From positions 75,398-139,397 of the forward strand of contig JAFUEX010000024.1 in the NCBI GenBank assembly GCA_017470165.1: 64,000 nt of DNA. Reading direction: 5' to 3'. Both the position numbers and the translations under genes were made by a program. Under the pieces are notes generated by a model. The model made no database searches. It was not told the origin of the DNA and saw nothing but the letters and a program-made list of their open reading frames with translations. Shown one piece after another: positions 3,587 to 31,373 of the stretch (positions within the stretch are counted from its first letter, which is position 1; every line of letters starts with the position of its first letter). This DNA is from Alphaproteobacteria bacterium (GTDB lineage Bacteria; Pseudomonadota; Alphaproteobacteria; RF32; CAG-239).

Positions 3587-3646
3587 TTTTGACTTTCTAA
3601 ATCTAATATAAAATTATTTGATACAAATGTTCAAAAAATTTTTTTA

Positions 3647-5119
3647 TTATTTTTCGTCTGCCTCGTCTTTTTCGTCCGTTTTATCTCTCGAATTGGGCTT
3701 CGGAGCCCCTAGACCGTTTGTCGGATCAACCGTGAAAACGAGCCCAAGACCGGCAGCGCGTTCAGCATCAGCGGCTATTTGTTCGTCGACCTCGGCCGCA
3801 TCCCCACCCATTTCGGATATAATTTGCGAACGTGACGCAAATCCGCACAAAACTTTTTCCTTTTGGGCTGCAATTTCCTGTTGCGGGTTGACATACGCCC
3901 AACCAGCAGGCTGGAATCGTGCCCGATGGAATTTTTGCGGATCCTGCGTGTATTCGTTGATATTGACTTCAAGCGCACCGGATAGAACTGCGGCTTCAAT
4001 GAATTTATCCCAGATTCGGCGCAACACCTGATGGACAAGGCGATTTTGTTCTTGCCGATGTTTGCGCTGTGTGATATTTAATCCCATTCTGCTGGACGAG
4101 AAGTTTGTTTTGCTCATATCGTTCGTAAATTCTTCATACGTCAGCTGAATTGTGGCCGCCAAAGCGCGCAAACTTTGCGCCATGTACGGCTCGTATGAAG
4201 TTCCACTTTCGGCCGGAGCATTGAATTTGATATCTTCTCCGGGGGCGAGCGTCGTGATGGTTCCGGTTGTGATTTCAGCGATAGCCTCTCCGGGACCGGC
4301 ATCCTCATCTTCATCATCCGCATTTAATGTGCCATCCGCGACCGGCGTTGTGACAAATCCGGCCAGCATGGCGGCGAGTTTTTTCTTTGCAAGTTCTGCT
4401 TCATCATATTCGAGCATCTCGCGGGCTTTGAGCAATCCGGCAAATGCTTCCGGAACGCCTCGCACCTGTCCAGCCCACAATTGTTTGAAGTAATGGCAAA
4501 CCTCATCTGCCGGAACTTCAACCGTTTCAAGGTAATTTCCGGACACAATGCTTTCGTTCGGATGTTTTTTATAAAAAATGTATGACACGCGGTGTCCTGC
4601 TTTGTCAAATTTAACCCCTGCAACAGTTTCGCCGCCGTCAGCGTCGGCGTGATTTTCATCAAGCTTGCATTGATCAGCCTGCAGGAGCTGTAATTTTAGA
4701 GGGACGACGCCGAAATTTTCAGGCACAAAACGGATAAACACTTCACCGCCTTCCCAGCGTTCGCGAACTGCCAAGGAAAGGAGACTTGTCAGGTCATTTA
4801 CGCCCTCAAGGTCGCACTCGTGGCACCATTCGCTCCAAAGATGTTTTAATCTTTCGCAAAGATCACAATCATCATGTTTTGGCAAAATTCTGATGCCGGG
4901 ACCCACTATATTGCTGGCAATTGTTTCGTATGCGCTGTTCATGTACGGATAATTTCGTGTTAAATCTCGGGATTTTCTACGCAGTTCATCAAGCGAATAA
5001 ATGATAGCCGTATTCGGACCGGCCGAAGAAACACGCCAAGCACGCATACGACCGCGTCCTGTGGCTCCGAATGCAGGATCGGTCATTAGTCTTTTGGATC
5101 TTTTTTTGAATTTGAACAT
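3647..5119 (-). CDS. Portal protein, lambda gpB family.
   Basis: 490 aa. Positioned after the gpW-like gene and before the protease gene. The C-terminal tail is acidic. Confidence 0.7.
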   Translation of the reverse strand: MFKFKKRSKRLMTDPAFGATGRGRMRAWRVSSAGPNTAIIYSLDELRRKSRDLTRNYPYMNSAYETIASNIVGPGIRILPKHDDCDLCERLKHLWSEWCHECDLEGVNDLTSLLSLAVRERWEGGEVFIRFVPENFGVVPLKLQLLQADQCKLDENHADADGGETVAGVKFDKAGHRVSYIFYKKHPNESIVSGNYLETVEVPADEVCHYFKQLWAGQVRGVPEAFAGLLKAREMLEYDEAELAKKKLAAMLAGFVTTPVADGTLNADDEDEDAGPGEAIAEITTGTITTLAPGEDIKFNAPAESGTSYEPYMAQSLRALAATIQLTYEEFTNDMSKTNFSSSRMGLNITQRKHRQEQNRLVHQVLRRIWDKFIEAAVLSGALEVNINEYTQDPQKFHRARFQPAGWAYVNPQQEIAAQKEKVLCGFASRSQIISEMGGDAAEVDEQIAADAERAAGLGLVFTVDPTNGLGAPKPNSRDKTDEKDEADEK

Positions 5120-5343
5120 TATAACCCCCGATGTGTGACTGTTTTGATGACGCGGGTTTTTCTGATGCCAAGCTCGGCATCGATTGCGTCAATGGCGGCT
5201 TTGATGTCGCTCATGCTTCTGAATGTGGTGGTTTTGCCGTTATGGCTGATGGATGCAACGCCACTTGTGTAAGCGTTCACGAGCTTTTTTCTGCGTTCTT
5301 TCAGCTCGCTGATTTCGTTTTCTGTTAAATTATTCTTTGCCAT
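5119..5343 (-). CDS. Head-tail joining protein, gpW-like.
   Basis: 74 aa with a pattern similar to lambda gpW (...TSGVASISHNGKTTTFRSMSDIKAAIDAIDAELG). Its stop overlaps the portal start codon. Confidence 0.55.
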   Translation of the reverse strand: MAKNNLTENEISELKERRKKLVNAYTSGVASISHNGKTTTFRSMSDIKAAIDAIDAELGIRKTRVIKTVTHRGL

Positions 5344-5489
5344 GATTGCCTCGCATTTCGTATATCTAAAACTATTTTAGTCATTTTTGCCTTAAATGTT
5401 CAAAAAATTTTTTTTATTTCTTGACTATTCTTGTTTTTTATTGATATAATTCTGGCATAAAGTCATTTTTGACTTAAAATTTATTTTGT

Positions 5490-5566
5490 CGCGGGGTGGA
5501 GCAGTTAGTTAGCTCGCTGGTTTCATACTCCAGAGGTCGATGGTGCAAATCCATCTCCCGCAACCA
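5490..5566 (+). tRNA. tRNA-Met (anticodon CAT), initiator-like, encoded by the phage.
   Basis: 77 nt beginning CGCGGGGTGGAGCAG and ending TCCCGCAACCA, similar to E. coli tRNA-fMet. It has a C1:A72 mismatch, a TTCATAC anticodon loop, a perfect T-arm and an encoded CCA. Confidence 0.8.
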
Positions 5567-5660
5567 ACACAAGAAGATATTGTGGTATTTCTTCTTAAAA
5601 AAAGTGTTCCACACGTCGGTAGTTGTGAGCTCGATGTCGTTAATGTGAACTCTCATTTAT

Positions 5661-5745
5661 AGGACTGTAGCTCAATGGTAGAGCGTTCTGTGTGCACAGA
5701 TTAAACCGAGCAGTTTGTATGTGGGTTCGACTCCCGCCGGTCCGA
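5661..5745 (+). ncRNA. tRNA-like sequence with a non-canonical anticodon arm; possibly a tRNA pseudogene or decoy.
   Basis: Acceptor, D-arm (GCTC-AATGGTA-GAGC) and T-arm (GTGGG-TTCGACT-CCCGC) are canonical. The anticodon region is a perfect 14-nt palindrome (TCTGTGTGCACAGA), which gives a 4-nt loop. A long hairpin-forming variable region follows. Confidence 0.45.
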
Positions 5746-5883
5746 CCTATTACTTATGTCTGAGAGAACGCCGGTCGGATCGGCTTAAGACAAAACAGCT
5801 TAACCGAAAAGATTGGCAAGGAACACCGGATGGTTGCAAACGTCTGGTGTTTTCTTTTTGACTTTCAAGAAGAACGTGCTCCT

Positions 5884-5953
5884 GGCGGGAGGCTGCTGGG
5901 ACGGTTCCTCGCTCTGCGGTTCCCGTAGCCGGGCTGCGGGTGATTCGCTTTCG
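5884..5953. repeat. Left copy of a ~70-bp GC-rich direct repeat flanking the moron cassette.
   Basis: Shares the 18-nt exact core tgcggttcccgtagccgg and ~70% flanking identity with the copy at 7310-7380. Confidence 0.8.
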
Positions 5954-5999
5954 ATTGCGTATGTCATTCATGGCGCGCGCGGGCGGAGCCTTCCCAGAG

Positions 6000-6042
6000 C
6001 TTTTGCTTAAAGCAAAAGAAAGGTGTCGAATTCGACACCTTT
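6000..6042. terminator. Two adjacent perfect palindromes forming a probable (bidirectional) terminator.
   Basis: The palindromes are cttttgcttaaagcaaaag and aaaggtgtcgaattcgacaccttt. They lie just 3' of the minus-strand small ORF and are followed by T-rich sequence. Confidence 0.5.
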
Positions 6043-6047
6043 GGATG

Positions 6048-6197
6048 TTATTTGCCAATGTTATAGGCTTGGCATGCGGGCTGGTATCCGTGTTCGCACC
6101 GGATCTTGTTTTCCCAAACATCACCGACAATCAGCAAAAAATACATTGCCGCAAAAAATAAAATCATTGAAAAACCGTCTAAGATGTATTTAATCAT
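6048..6197 (-). CDS. 49-aa small membrane protein, paralogous to the ORF at 14018-14167.
   Basis: Translates to MIKYILDGFSMILFFAAMYFLLIVGDVWENKIRCEHGYQPACQAYNIGK, about 70% identical to the 14018 peptide. It is below the 60-aa cutoff of the ORF track. A terminator hairpin lies downstream. Confidence 0.6.
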   Translation of the reverse strand: MIKYILDGFSMILFFAAMYFLLIVGDVWENKIRCEHGYQPACQAYNIGK

Positions 6198-6525
6198 TTT
6201 CTGTAACCTTTTTTAGTGTTGTGCCATCTTAGCTATGAGAAGGTGGCGGACTCAACTAAAGCCGGTTACAGTTTGTAAGGCTTCGGGCTTTATTCAATAT
6301 ATTCGGCCTCTCATCCGCCATAATTTTGGTATAAAAAAACGCCTTCTTCGGGGGCGGTATACCGCTGTAACCTGTTTTAGTATCTACAGTATACACAAAA
6401 AATAGTTAAAAGTCAGTTAATAAATTCATTTTTTTATTTTTTTTGCTTTCCGGGAGTTGAAGCCGCTCGAAAGCGTGGGATTATTTCCGTTCCGGTCTTG
6501 TATTCTCCGCGCTCCCGGAGCGGTT

Positions 6526-7170
6526 TTATTCAAAATATCTTTTCAGCTTACCATCTCCTAGAATTTTTGCTACATCCTCTGCTTCTATTACATCTCCATT
6601 ATCATTGTAAAACTCCACTATGTTTGCCACGTTAAAAACGTGGTTTTCCTTGCGAAGCTTGCAATATCCGACAAGGTAAATTTCAGCCGAATATTCATTT
6701 TTTTGCTTTTGGGTTTGCCTTAATTGTTTTTTATAATCGCTCATCATTTCGCTATAGTAGGCTTTTTCTCCAGCCTCACACTTCGGGACTGAATCGATTT
6801 TGTATTGCATATCGTCAATTGCGGCCCTATCTTCAAGAATTGCCTGTTTAAATTCTTTGTTGTATTTCAGAATAAGCTGGATTTTTGCCGTTCTTGTCGT
6901 TGTTTCATCTTTGGAGTTGATATATTTGAAGGTCAAATCAATTCCGGTTTGGCTCCGCCACAGGACGTCGACAAATTCCTCATTTTCTTTTCGGAGTATT
7001 TCAGGCTTTTGTTTTTCTTTCAAATTGACATAAACAATCAGGGAGGCGATGATCCCGATTATTGCTCCACCATAAATAAAATCACAGCAGTTAAAAACAA
7101 CTGGAATAAACATAACCCAGAAGCCGACTATCGCGGATTTTACTATTGTGTAATCTATTTTTTTCTTCAT
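6526..7170 (-). CDS. Moron-encoded membrane protein (two N-terminal transmembrane helices plus a soluble domain), function unknown.
   Basis: 214-aa ORF with very low GC relative to the phage. It is inserted between TerL and gpW inside the direct-repeat-bracketed cassette. Possible -35/-10 elements lie in 7171-7300. Confidence 0.6.
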   Translation of the reverse strand: MKKKIDYTIVKSAIVGFWVMFIPVVFNCCDFIYGGAIIGIIASLIVYVNLKEKQKPEILRKENEEFVDVLWRSQTGIDLTFKYINSKDETTTRTAKIQLILKYNKEFKQAILEDRAAIDDMQYKIDSVPKCEAGEKAYYSEMMSDYKKQLRQTQKQKNEYSAEIYLVGYCKLRKENHVFNVANIVEFYNDNGDVIEAEDVAKILGDGKLKRYFE

Positions 7171-7309
7171 AACCCTGTGCCTTTTCTTAAAGATAATACT
7201 CCAAGTTTGACTTTATTATCCGATAAAAGTTCTAAAAAGTCAAGCATAAAGTCAAATTTGCCTTATTTTTTTGACTTTATGTGAAAATTGTTTATTGTAT
7301 GGTGCTCAT

Positions 7310-7380
7310 GGCGGGGGCGGCTTGGCGCGATTCTCCGCATTGCGGTTCCCGTAGCCGGAACGCGAGTGTTACGCTTTTGG
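7310..7380. repeat. Right copy of the ~70-bp GC-rich direct repeat.
   Basis: See 5884-5953; same orientation. Confidence 0.8.
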
Positions 7381-7450
7381 GTACGTCTACCGATAATGGC
7401 ACGCGCCGGCGTAACCAACCCAAGGACTTTTTGCCTTGAAAGTCAAAAAG

Positions 7451-9385
7451 CTATAATGATCCAAAACGTCCGACAATGCGACGCTTTTTCTTTTTTTGCA
7501 GGATCTTTGGTTTCGGTATGCTGTCAATGTTGACATCTGGGTTTTTCTCAACCATCTCGCGCACTTTTTCCGCATATTCCTGCCGTGCCAACATTCTTTC
7601 CCAACGGCGCCGCAAGTCAAGTCCTTGAAGCTTCATGCCTTCGAGCGCGGCGAGTGAATATCCGAAGATATCCAACGCTTCGTTGCGCTTTCGTCCGGGA
7701 CGCAATGCGTAATATCTTATTTTTCGACCTTTGACATATGATGTTTTGGCTTCTTCAGCTGTCAGCTGGACAAAGTGGTTTTCGTCATAGTCCATGTTGA
7801 AGTGACAATATCCGGGGGCTTGCGGATCATCAAGGCGCAAGCGGTTGTAGATGACATCTTTGACGGTGTCGGTGCCGACGAGGAAGAAGTCCAAATTCGT
7901 CTTTTTGAGCTTTCCGGGGGCTTTTTTTATAATCGGGCGACCTTCTCCAGCCATACCTTTAACCGCCCAAACACGCCGGTTCCATCGTTCCTGACAGAAT
8001 TTTCCGACCATTTGCGTCAAATAACCGCTATCCACACAGCAGGCGGATATAGACATTTCACCGACGAGTTCGTGTTCAATTGGCGTTAAGAGTAATTCGT
8101 CCAGTTCTTCCCAGATACGCTCCGCACCCGGATCACCGAGCAAAACTTTTTTACCAAGTCCATAGCTTTGATTGTTTGATGTCCAACCGATTCGCTCCAG
8201 CTCTATACGGTTATCTTGGACGTCGACGCCGGCCGTTATAACAACGACATCAGGCGGTGCTTTGCTGTAGGTTTCGCGGCGAGCGACCAACTTATCTTCC
8301 TCTACGCGCTCTCCTTTGTCTTCCCAAACTTCGCCTAGTGAAGTGTTAATGAATGTTTTTAATGCTTCCGGATCTTCTTTTGCATCCAAAAACGACCGAA
8401 CAACTTCCTCTAATTTCACCCATGGCGAATAACCTTCCCACAAAGCAAATCCAGCGTGCCCATGGAATGGCTTTGTTGCTCTCCATTCACCGAGACTGAT
8501 TGCGTGCCAACGCTCCACATCATTCCAAAGGCACCCGCAATGCGTGCAGGCGTACATTGCTGTTTTTGCGCTATCCTCTTTGGTTTCGAGCTTTTCCCAT
8601 TTGACGTTTTTCCACTCAATCCGCTGATATTCTCCGCAATGTGGACAAGGCACATAAAAATAACGTTGGTCGGATCGACGGAATGATGCATCTATTTTGC
8701 TCATGCCCTTTATCGTTGGTGTTGAGCACTTTATAACTTTTCTATTCCAAAACGTTGTCGTTCTTTTAACCGCCAACTTTACCGGATCGCCTTCCTGACC
8801 GGCTGACAATGGATAGCGGTCGATTTCGTCGAGCAATACAATTCTGATTGGACGGCTGGCCAAACTTGCGGCAGAGTTCGCTCCGGCCATGGTAATATGT
8901 CCGCCGGGGAACGATTTGTGCAATACCGTATTTCCACTGTCTTTACTGTCGGACACTTTGTTCTGCAGGCACGGTGTATCACGGAGCATCGGCGACAGAC
9001 GGTCGGTTGACCAACTCTTGGCAACCTCGACCGTTGGTTGAAGAAGCAGAATCGGGCAAGGATCCTTGTCTATGTAATAACCCACCGCATTGTTTAACAT
9101 TTCTGTTTTGCCTACCTGCGAGCTGGCGACAATCGTTATTTCTTCGCAGTCAATGTCTGATATGGCATCCATAAGCCCGCGCTGATATTCGGCTCGGCTG
9201 GTATTCCATTGTCCGGGCTCGGCTGAGCTTTCGGACGATAAGACGCGGTTTGCATCCGCCCATTCCGATATTGTTTGACGTGGCGGTAGCTCCAATCCTT
9301 TCAGAAAGCCCTCGCAAAAACTGCGCACCCCCTCAAAGATCAGCCATTCGTCCGAGAATTGTTCTGGCGCACCGTTCACACTCAT
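7451..9385 (-). CDS. Terminase large subunit, GpA family.
   Basis: 644 aa (lambda gpA is 641 aa). Has a Walker A-like motif (SSQVGKTE) and sits directly downstream of TerS. Confidence 0.8.
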   Translation of the reverse strand: MSVNGAPEQFSDEWLIFEGVRSFCEGFLKGLELPPRQTISEWADANRVLSSESSAEPGQWNTSRAEYQRGLMDAISDIDCEEITIVASSQVGKTEMLNNAVGYYIDKDPCPILLLQPTVEVAKSWSTDRLSPMLRDTPCLQNKVSDSKDSGNTVLHKSFPGGHITMAGANSAASLASRPIRIVLLDEIDRYPLSAGQEGDPVKLAVKRTTTFWNRKVIKCSTPTIKGMSKIDASFRRSDQRYFYVPCPHCGEYQRIEWKNVKWEKLETKEDSAKTAMYACTHCGCLWNDVERWHAISLGEWRATKPFHGHAGFALWEGYSPWVKLEEVVRSFLDAKEDPEALKTFINTSLGEVWEDKGERVEEDKLVARRETYSKAPPDVVVITAGVDVQDNRIELERIGWTSNNQSYGLGKKVLLGDPGAERIWEELDELLLTPIEHELVGEMSISACCVDSGYLTQMVGKFCQERWNRRVWAVKGMAGEGRPIIKKAPGKLKKTNLDFFLVGTDTVKDVIYNRLRLDDPQAPGYCHFNMDYDENHFVQLTAEEAKTSYVKGRKIRYYALRPGRKRNEALDIFGYSLAALEGMKLQGLDLRRRWERMLARQEYAEKVREMVEKNPDVNIDSIPKPKILQKKKKRRIVGRFGSL

Positions 9386-27354: not shown

Positions 27355-27499
27355 TTTATTTTGTCGCCATTTTTGGCTTCATGTGTTAACCCTCGGCGGT
27401 TTTTGTTCAACAAAACACGGAATGTATGAAATTCCGGGCAATATTTATATTGACTACTGTCCGAAGTGCCATTCTATACGGGGGCGCCATGAAAGATAA
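27335..27499 (+). CDS. 54-aa zinc-ribbon protein.
   Basis: MLQKIHSLFCRHFW...CPKCHSIRGRHER. It is embedded in the longer 27260-27499 track ORF in the same frame. Confidence 0.3.
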   Translation: MLQKIHSLFCRHFWLHVLTLGGFCSTKHGMYEIPGNIYIDYCPKCHSIRGRHER

Positions 27500-28118
27500 G
27501 GAAATCACAGCCGAAATCATCCGCAGATTGCGCTTAATGCCGGAACATAGGAGAGATATTTATTTCCCTGAATTCCGCTGGTGCGCAGGTGTGGCTGGTT
27601 CGCGCCGTGCAGACGCATTCTTTATTCTTGCGCGTCCGCCTTATTTTTCCGTTACCTATGAAGTTAAAGCAAATCATTGGGATTTTGAGCGGGATCTGCA
27701 GAACGCAGAAAAGCATAGCAAAGCTCGGCAATACTCAAACATCTTCTATTATGCGGCTCCGGCCGGTGCTATTCGTCCGGAAGAGTTACCGGAGTGGGCT
27801 GGCTTGGTTGAGTTTGATTTATCAATTCTGGCCGATGAATACACACAAGGTGCAATGGTTGTCAAGCAAGCCCCGCTTCATGACAGAGAGGATCCGGGTT
27901 GGGATTTGATCGCAAGCATTGCAAAACGGCTTCAGGATCCTGCGTTTCGTTTCGAGGCTCACGGTATGCACCTGATTTCAAATGATCAGCTCATGCAGTT
28001 GAAGTCTTTAATCGGTCAGCAGGTCCAAGCAAATAAAATTCTGCAGGCCGGATCCTCGGCAATGATGTCGGCTTTGGCTATTGTCAGCAAAATTTTTAAC
28101 CGAAAGGACAAGCTATGA
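27489..28118 (+). CDS. MmcB-like PD-(D/E)xK family protein.
   Basis: AGSRRADAFFI...YEVKANHWDFERD...NIFYYAAP resembles the MmcB/DUF1052 pattern. Confidence 0.4.
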   Translation: MKDKEITAEIIRRLRLMPEHRRDIYFPEFRWCAGVAGSRRADAFFILARPPYFSVTYEVKANHWDFERDLQNAEKHSKARQYSNIFYYAAPAGAIRPEELPEWAGLVEFDLSILADEYTQGAMVVKQAPLHDREDPGWDLIASIAKRLQDPAFRFEAHGMHLISNDQLMQLKSLIGQQVQANKILQAGSSAMMSALAIVSKIFNRKDKL

Positions 28119-31317: not shown

Positions 31318-31373
31318 ACCTCGTCAGGCTCATAACCTGAAGGTCGGAGGTTCAAATCCTCCCCCCGCAACCA
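31318..31373 (+). tRNA. 3' fragment of a host tRNA-Met(CAT) (fMet-like); candidate att core.
   Basis: CTCGTCAGGCTCATAACCTGAAGGTCGGAGGTTCAAATCCTCCCCCCGCAACCA matches E. coli tRNA-fMet from the D-stem onward. The 5' acceptor and D-arm are absent. Confidence 0.6.

Follow-up and report, generated by a model that had tools for sequence, protein, structure and literature searches.

A conserved tRNA-like gene without an anticodon in the accessory region of a lambda-like prophage

Two tRNA-shaped genes in a lambda-like prophage

Of central concern here is a pair of tRNA-shaped genes in a prophage of an alphaproteobacterial genome, lying in a stretch of 64,000 nucleotides (nt) of contig JAFUEX010000024.1 (positions 75,398 to 139,397) that was analysed at its full length and is called the window below. 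The first, gene 1, is an initiator-type tRNA-Met; the second, gene 2, has the body of a tRNA and no anticodon. Codon supply is the usual explanation for tRNA genes in phages, to which rescue from tRNA-cleaving defences has lately been added. Judging from its sequence and that of its relatives, gene 2 appears to be a working tRNA look-alike, neither a decoder nor a dead gene, for which a function in RNA processing is proposed below. The phage lineage would then be maintaining an RNA with everything of a tRNA except the decoding part.

The lambda-like prophage occupies bases 1 to ~31,373 of the window, its opposite end falling outside. The terminase, adaptor and portal genes, together with those for the protease, decoration protein, major capsid protein and tail terminator, form a structural operon on the minus strand. 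Rightward of the structural genes are those for a ParB-methyltransferase, a D5-type primase-helicase, a CI-like repressor, a dUTPase, a C5 methylase and a SAM synthetase, and chromosomal genes begin at ~37 kb (ctpA, an envC-like gene, gpmI, the PBP1A gene, pssA, leuS and two tRNA-Leu genes). Terminase and gpW genes directly adjoin in lambda-type modules; here the terminase and the adaptor/portal genes are set apart by a 2.1-kb gap, and the two RNA genes lie inside it on the opposite strand (Table 1). Both are called on the plus strand by ARAGORN and by Rfam and so are antisense to the structural operon, as the first-pass annotation of this DNA had described.

That annotation had also supposed the host tRNA-fMet gene to be the integration target. 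The idea is reasonable, since a 54-nt 3' fragment of such a gene, lacking the 5' half, marks the right prophage end and by its sequence appears to be an att remnant. The annotation further suggested that the phage tRNA-Met may complement or replace the host copy. Integration into the 3' end of a tRNA normally regenerates that gene, and an intact tRNA-fMet gene should lie past the left edge of the window.

Table 1. Positions of the RNA genes, their parts and the reference features in the window
Feature	Position	Strand	Sequence, evidence or remark
Portal	3647-5119	-	
Head-tail adaptor, Ad1/gpW-like	5119-5343	-	
Predicted sigma-70-type promoter	5421-5450	+	TTGACT-18-TG-TATAAT; 11/12 consensus positions, extended -10 TG
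tRNA-Met (CAT), gene 1	5490-5566	+	CCA encoded; ARAGORN; Rfam RF00005; 13 homologues compared
Inter-gene spacer	5567-5660	+	blastn alignment to L001/L002 breaks at 5567, resumes for 5657-5745 only
Anticodon-less tRNA-like RNA gene, gene 2	5661-5745	+	ARAGORN, Rfam, own covariance model, covariation
Acceptor stem	5661-5667/5738-5744	+	AGGACTG/CGGTCCG; A1·G72 mismatched, other six paired
D arm	5670-5684	+	GCTC-AATGGTA-GAGC; canonical, 4-bp stem
Hairpin H1	5687-5700	+	TCTGTG-TG-CACAGA; 5 bp + loop GUGC
Hairpin H2	5702-5717	+	UAAAC-CGAGCA-GUUUG; 5 bp + loop CGAGCA
T arm	5721-5737	+	GTGGG-TTCGACT-CCCGC; canonical
Discriminator A	5745	+	CCA not encoded after it
3' trailer: internal hairpin and intrinsic terminator	5746-5862	+	terminator scan, trailer folds
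Intrinsic terminator stem-loop	5820-5853	+	loop GGTTGCAAAC at 5832-5841, then T run
Large terminase	7451-9385	-	
Canonical tRNA-fMet 3' fragment	31320-31373	+	54 nt, no 5' half; anticodon loop CTCATAA, T loop TTCAAAT, CCA

Fold of the anticodon-less gene

ARAGORN reports gene 2 as 'tRNA-???' at 5661-5747 (+) with a two-base 'anticodon (tg)', and the Rfam tRNA model RF00005 matches it at 40.1 bits (gathering threshold 29; E 5e-5 over the whole window) with an alignment that skips 25 nt where the anticodon arm is expected. The check that the first-pass annotation had proposed for 5661-5745 thus returned a tRNA shape with no anticodon. The minimum-free-energy fold comprises exactly the acceptor, D and T arms and two hairpins, H1 and H2, a four-arm-plus-one arrangement. 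The D and T arms are canonical, and the acceptor stem is topped by the A1·G72 mismatch. The 4-nt loop followed by an extra hairpin was read correctly (H1 and H2); the one factual slip in the first-pass annotation is the 'perfect 14-nt palindrome' said to replace the anticodon arm, which is in fact a 6+2+6 inverted repeat whose inner 12-mer matches the reverse strand with two mismatches.

Gene 2 has the core of a canonical tRNA, with a 7-bp acceptor stem, D and T arms and core nucleotides, and departs from it in the anticodon arm. The nucleotides retained throughout its family are U8, A14, G18G19, T54-T55-C56, A58 and a purine (G) at 26. Because these and the 15:48 pair are kept, the RNA should fold as a tRNA body.

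Conservation and covariation among relatives

Relatives were gathered through homologues of the adaptor protein and their contigs, with two IMG/VR contigs (L001, L002) and one locus from a genome collection (L082) in addition; most of the sequence diversity came from exact-protein look-ups of the adaptor homologues. The relatives are rumen/gut prophages, and several of the related contigs are from samples labelled bovine metagenome; NCBI assigns a protein 100% identical to the adaptor to a metagenome-assembled genome of an 'Alphaproteobacteria bacterium'. Comparison with related phages, as the first-pass annotation had recommended, recovered nine distinct sequence variants of the tRNA-like gene, referred to here as family A. 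The structural genes of L001 and L002 are 81-87% identical to those of the window; the tRNA-like gene is 100% identical over 88-89 nt, and the adjoining spacers cannot be aligned. A paralogous type with another acceptor and T stem, family B, is found in L113-L115 and, in a shorter form, in L097-L100, and there is also a degenerate third type. The minimal form, in L111, reads CGGACTG-TA-GCTC-AGTTGGCA-GAGC-TTTAGGTC-GCGGG-TTCAAGT-CCCGC-CGGTCCG-G and consists of acceptor, D and T arms only; it has neither H1 nor H2, yet its flanks and trailer are the same as in its relatives.

With a covariance model derived from the window copy, family A reaches 59-115 bits and family B 43; true tRNAs in the same loci score at or below 38 and unrelated odd phage tRNA-like genes at or below 54. 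Covariation was counted on a model-guided alignment of ten sequences, nine of family A and one of family B, in which all five helices are kept and standard pairs fill 96.7% of the helix cells. Both sides have changed in 9 of the 27 pairs (four of six in H1, two of five in H2, two in the T stem and one in the acceptor stem), these being counts of sequences and not of independent events, as all variants come from one phage lineage. None of 500 column shuffles reached these values, the best register-shifted control gave three pairs, and a hand-curated pair table agrees with the model-guided result. The tertiary Levitt pair covaries as well, being A15:U48 in the window and L094 and G15:C48 elsewhere, including L111 and family B. 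The H2 stem is conserved and covarying; its loop, of 5-7 nt, differs in sequence and length among variants.

These patterns point to purifying and compensatory selection on gene 2 as a member of a conserved structured-RNA family. They leave very little room for the suggestion, made in the first-pass annotation, that it is a decaying pseudogene or a functionless gene fragment. The missing anticodon and CCA and the mismatched top acceptor pair of the window copy are what such a fragment might display, but the element is 100% identical beside flanks that are ~81% so, compensatory changes occur in all of its variable helices, and it has been kept in at least nine variants, always in a promoter-terminator context of its own.

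Decoding capacity and origin

For the tRNA-like genes ARAGORN offers only 2-nt 'anticodons' (tg, gc, cg). An exhaustive scan between the D and T arms found no arm of 5 bp, 7 nt and 5 bp with U33 in any member of family A, which upholds the earlier observation that the second gene lacks a normal anticodon loop and rules out an alternative canonical cloverleaf. The H2 loops of family A are 5-6 nt long, without U33 and variable in sequence and length, and H1 leaves four loop bases. CCA is encoded in both host tRNA-Leu genes, in the phage tRNA-Met, in the tRNA-Pro of relatives and in the att fragment. The tRNA-like gene never encodes it, its 3' end reading ACC-T, GTC, ACT or AAT; its discriminator may be A or G, and positions 1:72 hold C:G or A·G. 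With neither an anticodon loop nor an encoded CCA in a conserved family, gene 2 would therefore be neither a decoder nor a decaying gene.

That it might nonetheless be a true decoding or aminoacylated tRNA with an alternative fold or an unusual loop, H2 for example serving as anticodon arm, seems scarcely credible. A normal-looking variable loop of 4-5 nt (NNGUC) does follow H2, which stands at the anticodon-arm position relative to tRNA-Pro, and the family B member in L113 can be drawn with a 5/7/5 arm including U33 (loop CUAUGGA). The family A loops just described are ill suited to such a role, however, L111 has no such arm at all, and CCA is left unencoded, unlike in the neighbouring true tRNAs.

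The gene appears to retain marks of a decoding past. Among bacterial tRNAs, C1:G72 is a signature of tRNA-Pro, and the family has G2:C71, G3:C70 and, in most members, C1:G72, so that most start with CGG and end with CCG-A/G. Relatives carry a normal tRNA-Pro(UGG) just upstream of the tRNA-like gene, the two genes having in common the 5' flank TTATCGGAT and the variable-loop sequence (AUGUC/GUGUC), and in L108, as compared with L106, a deletion joins the tRNA-Pro 5' flank to the tRNA-like gene. From this we infer that the tRNA-like gene is a duplicate of tRNA-Pro with a rebuilt anticodon region. It is ambiguous whether H1 or H2 holds the old anticodon-arm position, though the normal NNGUC loop follows H2. 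ProRS depends on G35/G36 and is therefore unlikely to charge the RNA efficiently.

The self-complementary hairpin

H1 is self-complementary through its centre in every variant, the loops being UGCA (L082, L101, L118), GGCC (L094), GCGC (L106) and ACGU (family B, L113); the GUGC loop of the window pairs with itself by way of two G·U pairs. Of the six H1 types in family A, five are perfect palindromes of 10-16 nt at this site, as is the one in family B. A hairpin does not need this central self-complementarity, which has a chance of 1/16 for each independent loop. A genome-wide bias towards palindromes was considered and rejected, with 29 perfect palindromes observed against 20.6 expected and a shuffle maximum of 32. 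Calculated with ViennaRNA, the H1 hairpin is worth -0.2 to -3.8 kcal/mol and the H1:H1 duplex -17 to -27.5 kcal/mol (-3.8 and -23.0 kcal/mol in the window), so homodimers are thermodynamically favoured, the duplex being far more stable than the hairpin.

Such energies allow a model, which we regard as rather doubtful, in which H1 has been selected for central self-complementarity and two RNAs pair into a symmetric, double-headed tRNA mimic. If so, they would be joined by an intermolecular helix of 12-16 bp or by a kissing complex, and the dimer would offer a pair of acceptor/elbow modules to a tRNA-binding enzyme or toxin that is itself dimeric, or serve as a short double-stranded RNA signal or substrate. 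To our knowledge there is no natural dimeric tRNA mimic of this double-headed kind.

The same palindromes could in principle act in DNA, as a protein-binding or recombination site, with the tRNA-like sequence as a homology 'linker' by which accessory cassettes are shuffled. The perfect palindromes of 10-16 bp noted above, the mosaic nature of the region, in which an identical tRNA-like gene lies inside non-homologous spacers, and the L108/L106 deletion, which falls between the 5' ends that tRNA-Pro and the tRNA-like gene have in common, would all suit a DNA-level element. We consider it unlikely nevertheless, since the palindrome sequence is unconserved, differing from variant to variant so that no single binding specificity is preserved, and since the window copy is symmetric only if G·U is allowed, which is a property of RNA. 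Nor is the palindrome repeated elsewhere in the window, as an operator might be, above chance, and covariation in the acceptor and T stems, in H2 and at 15:48 has no rationale at the level of DNA.

The transcription unit and a processing role

The predicted promoter lies 40 nt upstream of tRNA-Met, and its TTGACT block and surroundings are kept in all related loci. A U precedes each mature 5' end, and the trailer beyond gene 2 opens with a conserved YYUAU. The terminator carries an invariant 8-nt loop, GUUGCAAA, on a covarying stem (L082, L094, L097, L101, L106, L111 and L118), and this loop holds the palindrome UUGCAA; the combination suggests the functional loop of a candidate 3'-trailer small RNA (sRNA). 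As a possible target, the terminator loop does not recur elsewhere in the window above chance. Pairing of the H1 loop with the terminator loop was also considered and, judged from the sequences, proved inconsistent across variants.

Our favoured interpretation, which we hold only tentatively, is that gene 2 is a non-decoding RNA with a tRNA body that acts as a processing and stability module of the phage RNA operon, by way of RNase P and a 3' endonuclease. It would be transcribed with the initiator tRNA from the promoter, cut by RNase P at its 5' end, at the conserved U(-1), and cut by an RNase Z- or RNase E-type endonuclease past the discriminator, within the YYUAU start of the trailer. The tRNA body would in this way punctuate the transcript, freeing the conserved 3' trailer/terminator RNA, and once excised might itself build up as a stable RNA of ~85 nt. 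A 'processing signal' was among the options listed in the first-pass annotation and stays a good candidate, gene 2 adjoining the trailer RNA and both U(-1) and YYUAU being conserved. Such a role would explain the universal acceptor/T/D core, as in L111, and the absent CCA, along with the U(-1), the A/U-rich start of the trailer and the promoter-terminator cassette. The loss of both middle hairpins in L111 fits as well, because the top half and elbow suffice for processing.

Several points weigh against this role. H1 and H2 are kept by compensatory change in most members, which a pure processing handle would not require; in L001 and L002 a different trailer follows the tRNA-like gene, so that the link between the two is not absolute. 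All variants belong to one phage lineage, their adaptor proteins being 74-100% identical, which means that the covariation counts stem from few independent events. Finally, the proposed RNase Z or RNase E cleavage and trailer function are drawn by analogy from general tRNA biology.

The models nearest to hand are the t-elements of plant mitochondria and the mascRNA of MALAT1, tRNA-shaped signals for RNase P and RNase Z that define the ends of neighbouring RNAs, and sRNAs from tRNA 3' trailers such as 3'ETS-leuZ of E. coli, in which the RNA runs from the 3' end of a tRNA to the terminator. Of all known systems the gene 2 operon, known here from sequence, most resembles these. As in a t-element, an acceptor/T-arm module with no working anticodon stands beside another RNA in the predicted transcript. 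The t-elements and mascRNA are eukaryotic or organellar, however, and the trailer sRNAs use a genuine tRNA, whereas gene 2 is phage-borne and anticodon-less. We know of no bacteriophage example of a dedicated anticodon-less tRNA body, and literature searches turned up none.

A tRNA mimic as the main rival

The main rival to a processing module is a trans-acting mimic, an RNA that binds, titrates or inhibits a protein reading the acceptor, T arm or elbow of tRNAs to the benefit of the phage or lysogen. Candidate targets would be a toxin of a defence or toxin-antitoxin system that modifies or cleaves the acceptor end, or a tRNA maturation enzyme. We think this possible, if less probable than a processing role. 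Conservation of the full tertiary core goes beyond what a cleavage signal strictly requires, and the strong, autonomous predicted promoter is in the style of a moron. Among relatives the same slot carries cargo of the conflict type, namely a BrnT/BrnA toxin-antitoxin pair in L109, an HATPase_c_2 + DUF4325 pair in L110 and WYL-domain proteins, and Bro-N is found there as well. Phage tRNAs are moreover known counter-defence tools, by which tRNA-targeting defences are evaded or repaired (PMC10264068, PMC11555353, PMC10802454). Gene 2 resembles these in its accessory-region location, and its neighbour gene 1 does so in the altered anticodon loop and stem (C38, U31·U39) and elbow (G55); the phage tRNAs in question are, however, functional decoders that replace cleaved host tRNAs, and gene 2 cannot decode.

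A mimic is disfavoured by the finding of no partner protein and by the poor titration of enzymatic toxins that a stoichiometric decoy achieves. Variation at the discriminator (A/G) and at 1:72 (C:G or A·G) speaks against any one precise identity set. The RNA of gene 2 would also be invisible to the anticodon-loop nucleases that phage tRNAs counter: there is no anticodon loop to cleave, and L111 dispenses with the whole arm. The decoy for anticodon-cleaving nucleases envisaged in the first-pass annotation is for this reason unlikely. Selection on gene 2 points to use of the tRNA body itself, be it as a scaffold for processing and stability or as a mimic engaging tRNA-binding proteins. The family is small, compact and directly testable, and may represent a new variation on the tRNA-mimic theme.

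Other tRNA-like RNAs and the extent of the family

Beside tRNA-Pro(UGG) and RF00005, gene 2 has the same acceptor, D and T arms, elbow, core tertiary pairs, CGG/CCG ends and discriminator A, and differs in that two short hairpins (none in L111) replace the anticodon arm with its 7-nt loop, U33 and anticodon, and in that CCA is not encoded. It is not a class II tRNA, its D stem being of 4 bp, not 3, with no normal anticodon arm present. The tRNA-like domain of tmRNA resembles it in being an upper-half tRNA mimic without an anticodon; tmRNA has the alanine identity pair G3:U70, no D stem and an mRNA-like tag module. Gene 2 has G3:C70, with no tmRNA call by ARAGORN and no Rfam match at threshold, and this identity was rejected; the only Rfam tmRNA match, at 16.9 bits against a threshold of 47, lies elsewhere, in L118. 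Some YrlA Y RNAs are substrates of RNase P and of the CCA-adding enzyme, and some are phage-encoded (PMC4201824). In YrlA the stem that binds Ro60 is made by the RNA ends and lies where a tRNA has its anticodon, a closed stem-loop forms the 'acceptor', and there is a link to rsr (Ro60) (PMC4201824). Gene 2 is not an RNA of this type, because its own termini form the acceptor stem and no Ro60/TROVE gene was found among the open reading frames (ORFs) scanned; Rfam likewise matches it to no model other than tRNA.

In the literature on anticodon-less or decoy tRNA-like RNAs in phages we found no description of the gene 2 family. E. coli genomes and phage records yielded no relatives beyond generic similarity to tRNA-Met, and Rfam at permissive thresholds gave only tRNA and weak sRNA-Xcc1 matches, with no Y RNA, tmRNA or HDV-like ribozyme. 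Scans of IMG/VR with exact and degenerate DNA patterns, and a portal-protein search there, retrieved only L001 and L002 as related; a pattern scan of JGI metagenomes found only an already known contig, and the genome collection gave the one locus, L082. The hits L003-L005, from pattern scans with the 3' half only, were discarded as chance T-arm matches.

A D-arm-anchored pattern in IMG/VR (L008-L081) turned up ~27 unrelated tRNA-like genes of phages in which the anticodon domain is aberrant, with long stems and loops of 10-14 nt; their acceptor stems are mostly fully paired and CCA is mostly not encoded. Since one pattern search drew so many other such genes from IMG/VR, the phenomenon may be broad and at present concealed by 'tRNA-???' or undetermined annotation calls. 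A second IMG/VR group consists of ~25 class-II-like tRNA variants with the loop CUUAUAC/UUUAUAA (UAU), a long variable arm and CCA nearly always encoded. Homology of gene 2 to this 'UAU' family by way of CAGATTA was rejected, these genes scoring at most 54 bits with the family model and having normal anticodon arms.

The initiator-type tRNA

Gene 1 matches RF00005 at 51.8 bits (gathering threshold 29; E 3e-8 over the whole window). The first-pass annotation had read it as an fMet-like tRNA with a C1:A72 mismatch and a CAT anticodon, and this is right: C1·A72, A11:U24 and the CAT anticodon, all features of an initiator, can be read directly from the sequence, ARAGORN and Rfam agree, and 1:72 is mismatched (C·A, A·A or G·A) in 13 of 13 homologues. 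The three G:C pairs at 29:41, 30:40 and 31:39 are incomplete, G29:C41 and G30:C40 being present and U31·U39 mismatched; the host-type att fragment likewise has only two of the three. The T loop, UGCAAAU, has G55 and so departs from the canonical U54-U55-C56, and the D loop, AGUUAGUUA, lacks GG.

Gene 1 copies fall into two types in this respect. Type 1 (L097, L106, L113, L114) keeps GG in the D loop and the T loop UUCAAAU; type 2, comprising the window and seven others (L001, L082, L094, L101, L111, L118, L119), has the T loop UGCAARU, with G55 instead of the near-universal U55, and a D loop without G18. From the sequences, the difference appears to be a covarying, non-canonical change of the tRNA elbow, and we found no description of a variant combining G55 with loss of G18. 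Most phage copies, including that of the window, also have C38 in the anticodon loop, as against the host-type CUCAUAA, and the window copy adds the U31·U39 mismatch. VapC toxins cleave initiator tRNA at positions 38/39. By analogy, these changes provide a lead, recalling the anticodon-loop alterations that shield phage tRNAs from nucleases (PMC10264068).

In L105 (4798-4872) a metagenomic variant of the initiator tRNA, otherwise the same as that of L101, has C34 changed to T, giving the anticodon TAT, and is called as tRNA-Ile. In L101, L106, L111 and L097 the CCA of the first RNA gene is followed immediately by a conserved motif, GCCCC-stem-ATTTG-stem-(A/G)TGGGA-stem-GNRA-stem, that the window lacks. 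Its position is like that of the tRNA-associated, HDV-like 'theta' ribozymes of gut phages (PMC10879173), though no Rfam ribozyme model matches it.

Other features of the accessory gap

Related operons contain two further elements not present in the window, at L001 7612-7682, at L082 ~6395-6465 and in L097: a third tRNA-like module, GCGCGTTG-CTTGGCGATAG-hairpin-GGTTCAAYTCC-CAACGCGC, and an 'X' element, ACCACCAG...CTGCGGTTGCCGGGGAC...GGCTATAAAGAGGAACC, which is followed by a terminator. An ARAGORN 'tRNA-His (atg)' of 101 nt at 27389-27489 (+), without Rfam support and overlapping the start of the ORF at 27426-28118, is probably a false positive.

Besides the RNA genes, the 2.1-kb gap holds a weakly WYL-like ORF of 214 amino acids, a hydrophobic ORF of 49 amino acids and several repeats. 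The larger ORF, 6526-7170 (-), has no match in Pfam or PHROG; its C-terminus is weakly WYL-like (PADLOC RTasWYL-YodC, E 2e-6), and the ORF is 47% identical over 36 amino acids to the WYL protein of L094. WYL-domain proteins adjoin the RNA operon in most, not all, relatives. The smaller ORF, ~6044-6193 (-), predicts a single-helix hydrophobic peptide, MIKYILDGFSMILFFAAMYFLLIVGDVWENKIRCEHGYQPACQAYNIGK, kept in relatives (where genes for 49-64 amino acids are called); it could be a small toxin of the membrane or an exclusion factor. Upstream of a small hydrophobic ORF are matches to sRNA-Xcc1 (Rfam RF02221), a family of sRNAs associated with integrons and phages; that in the window, 6440-6520 (-), scores 38 bits and is under the threshold of 53, while that in L097, 3969-4053 (+), is over it at 56 bits.

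A GC-rich element of ~121 nt occurs twice, at 5876-5996 and 7302-7422 (70% identity), the copies enclosing the accessory block that separates the stop codon of the terminase from the tRNA operon. L082, L094, L101, L106, L118, L119 and L121 each have one or two copies, with the invariant blocks GCGCGCGCC, CGAAAGCGAA and ACGGGAACCGCA, and no convincing consensus fold was obtained on either strand. A perfect palindrome of 24 nt, AAAGGTGTCGAATTCGACACCTTT, at 6019-6042 is nearly invariant in all related loci and is a predicted bidirectional terminator. An intergenic block containing AAATGTTCAAAAAATTTTTTT is repeated at 3587-3645 and 5356-5414, before the protease and adaptor genes, and every relative keeps it; it may be a late-promoter or regulator site in which the region of the divergent tRNA promoter has a share.

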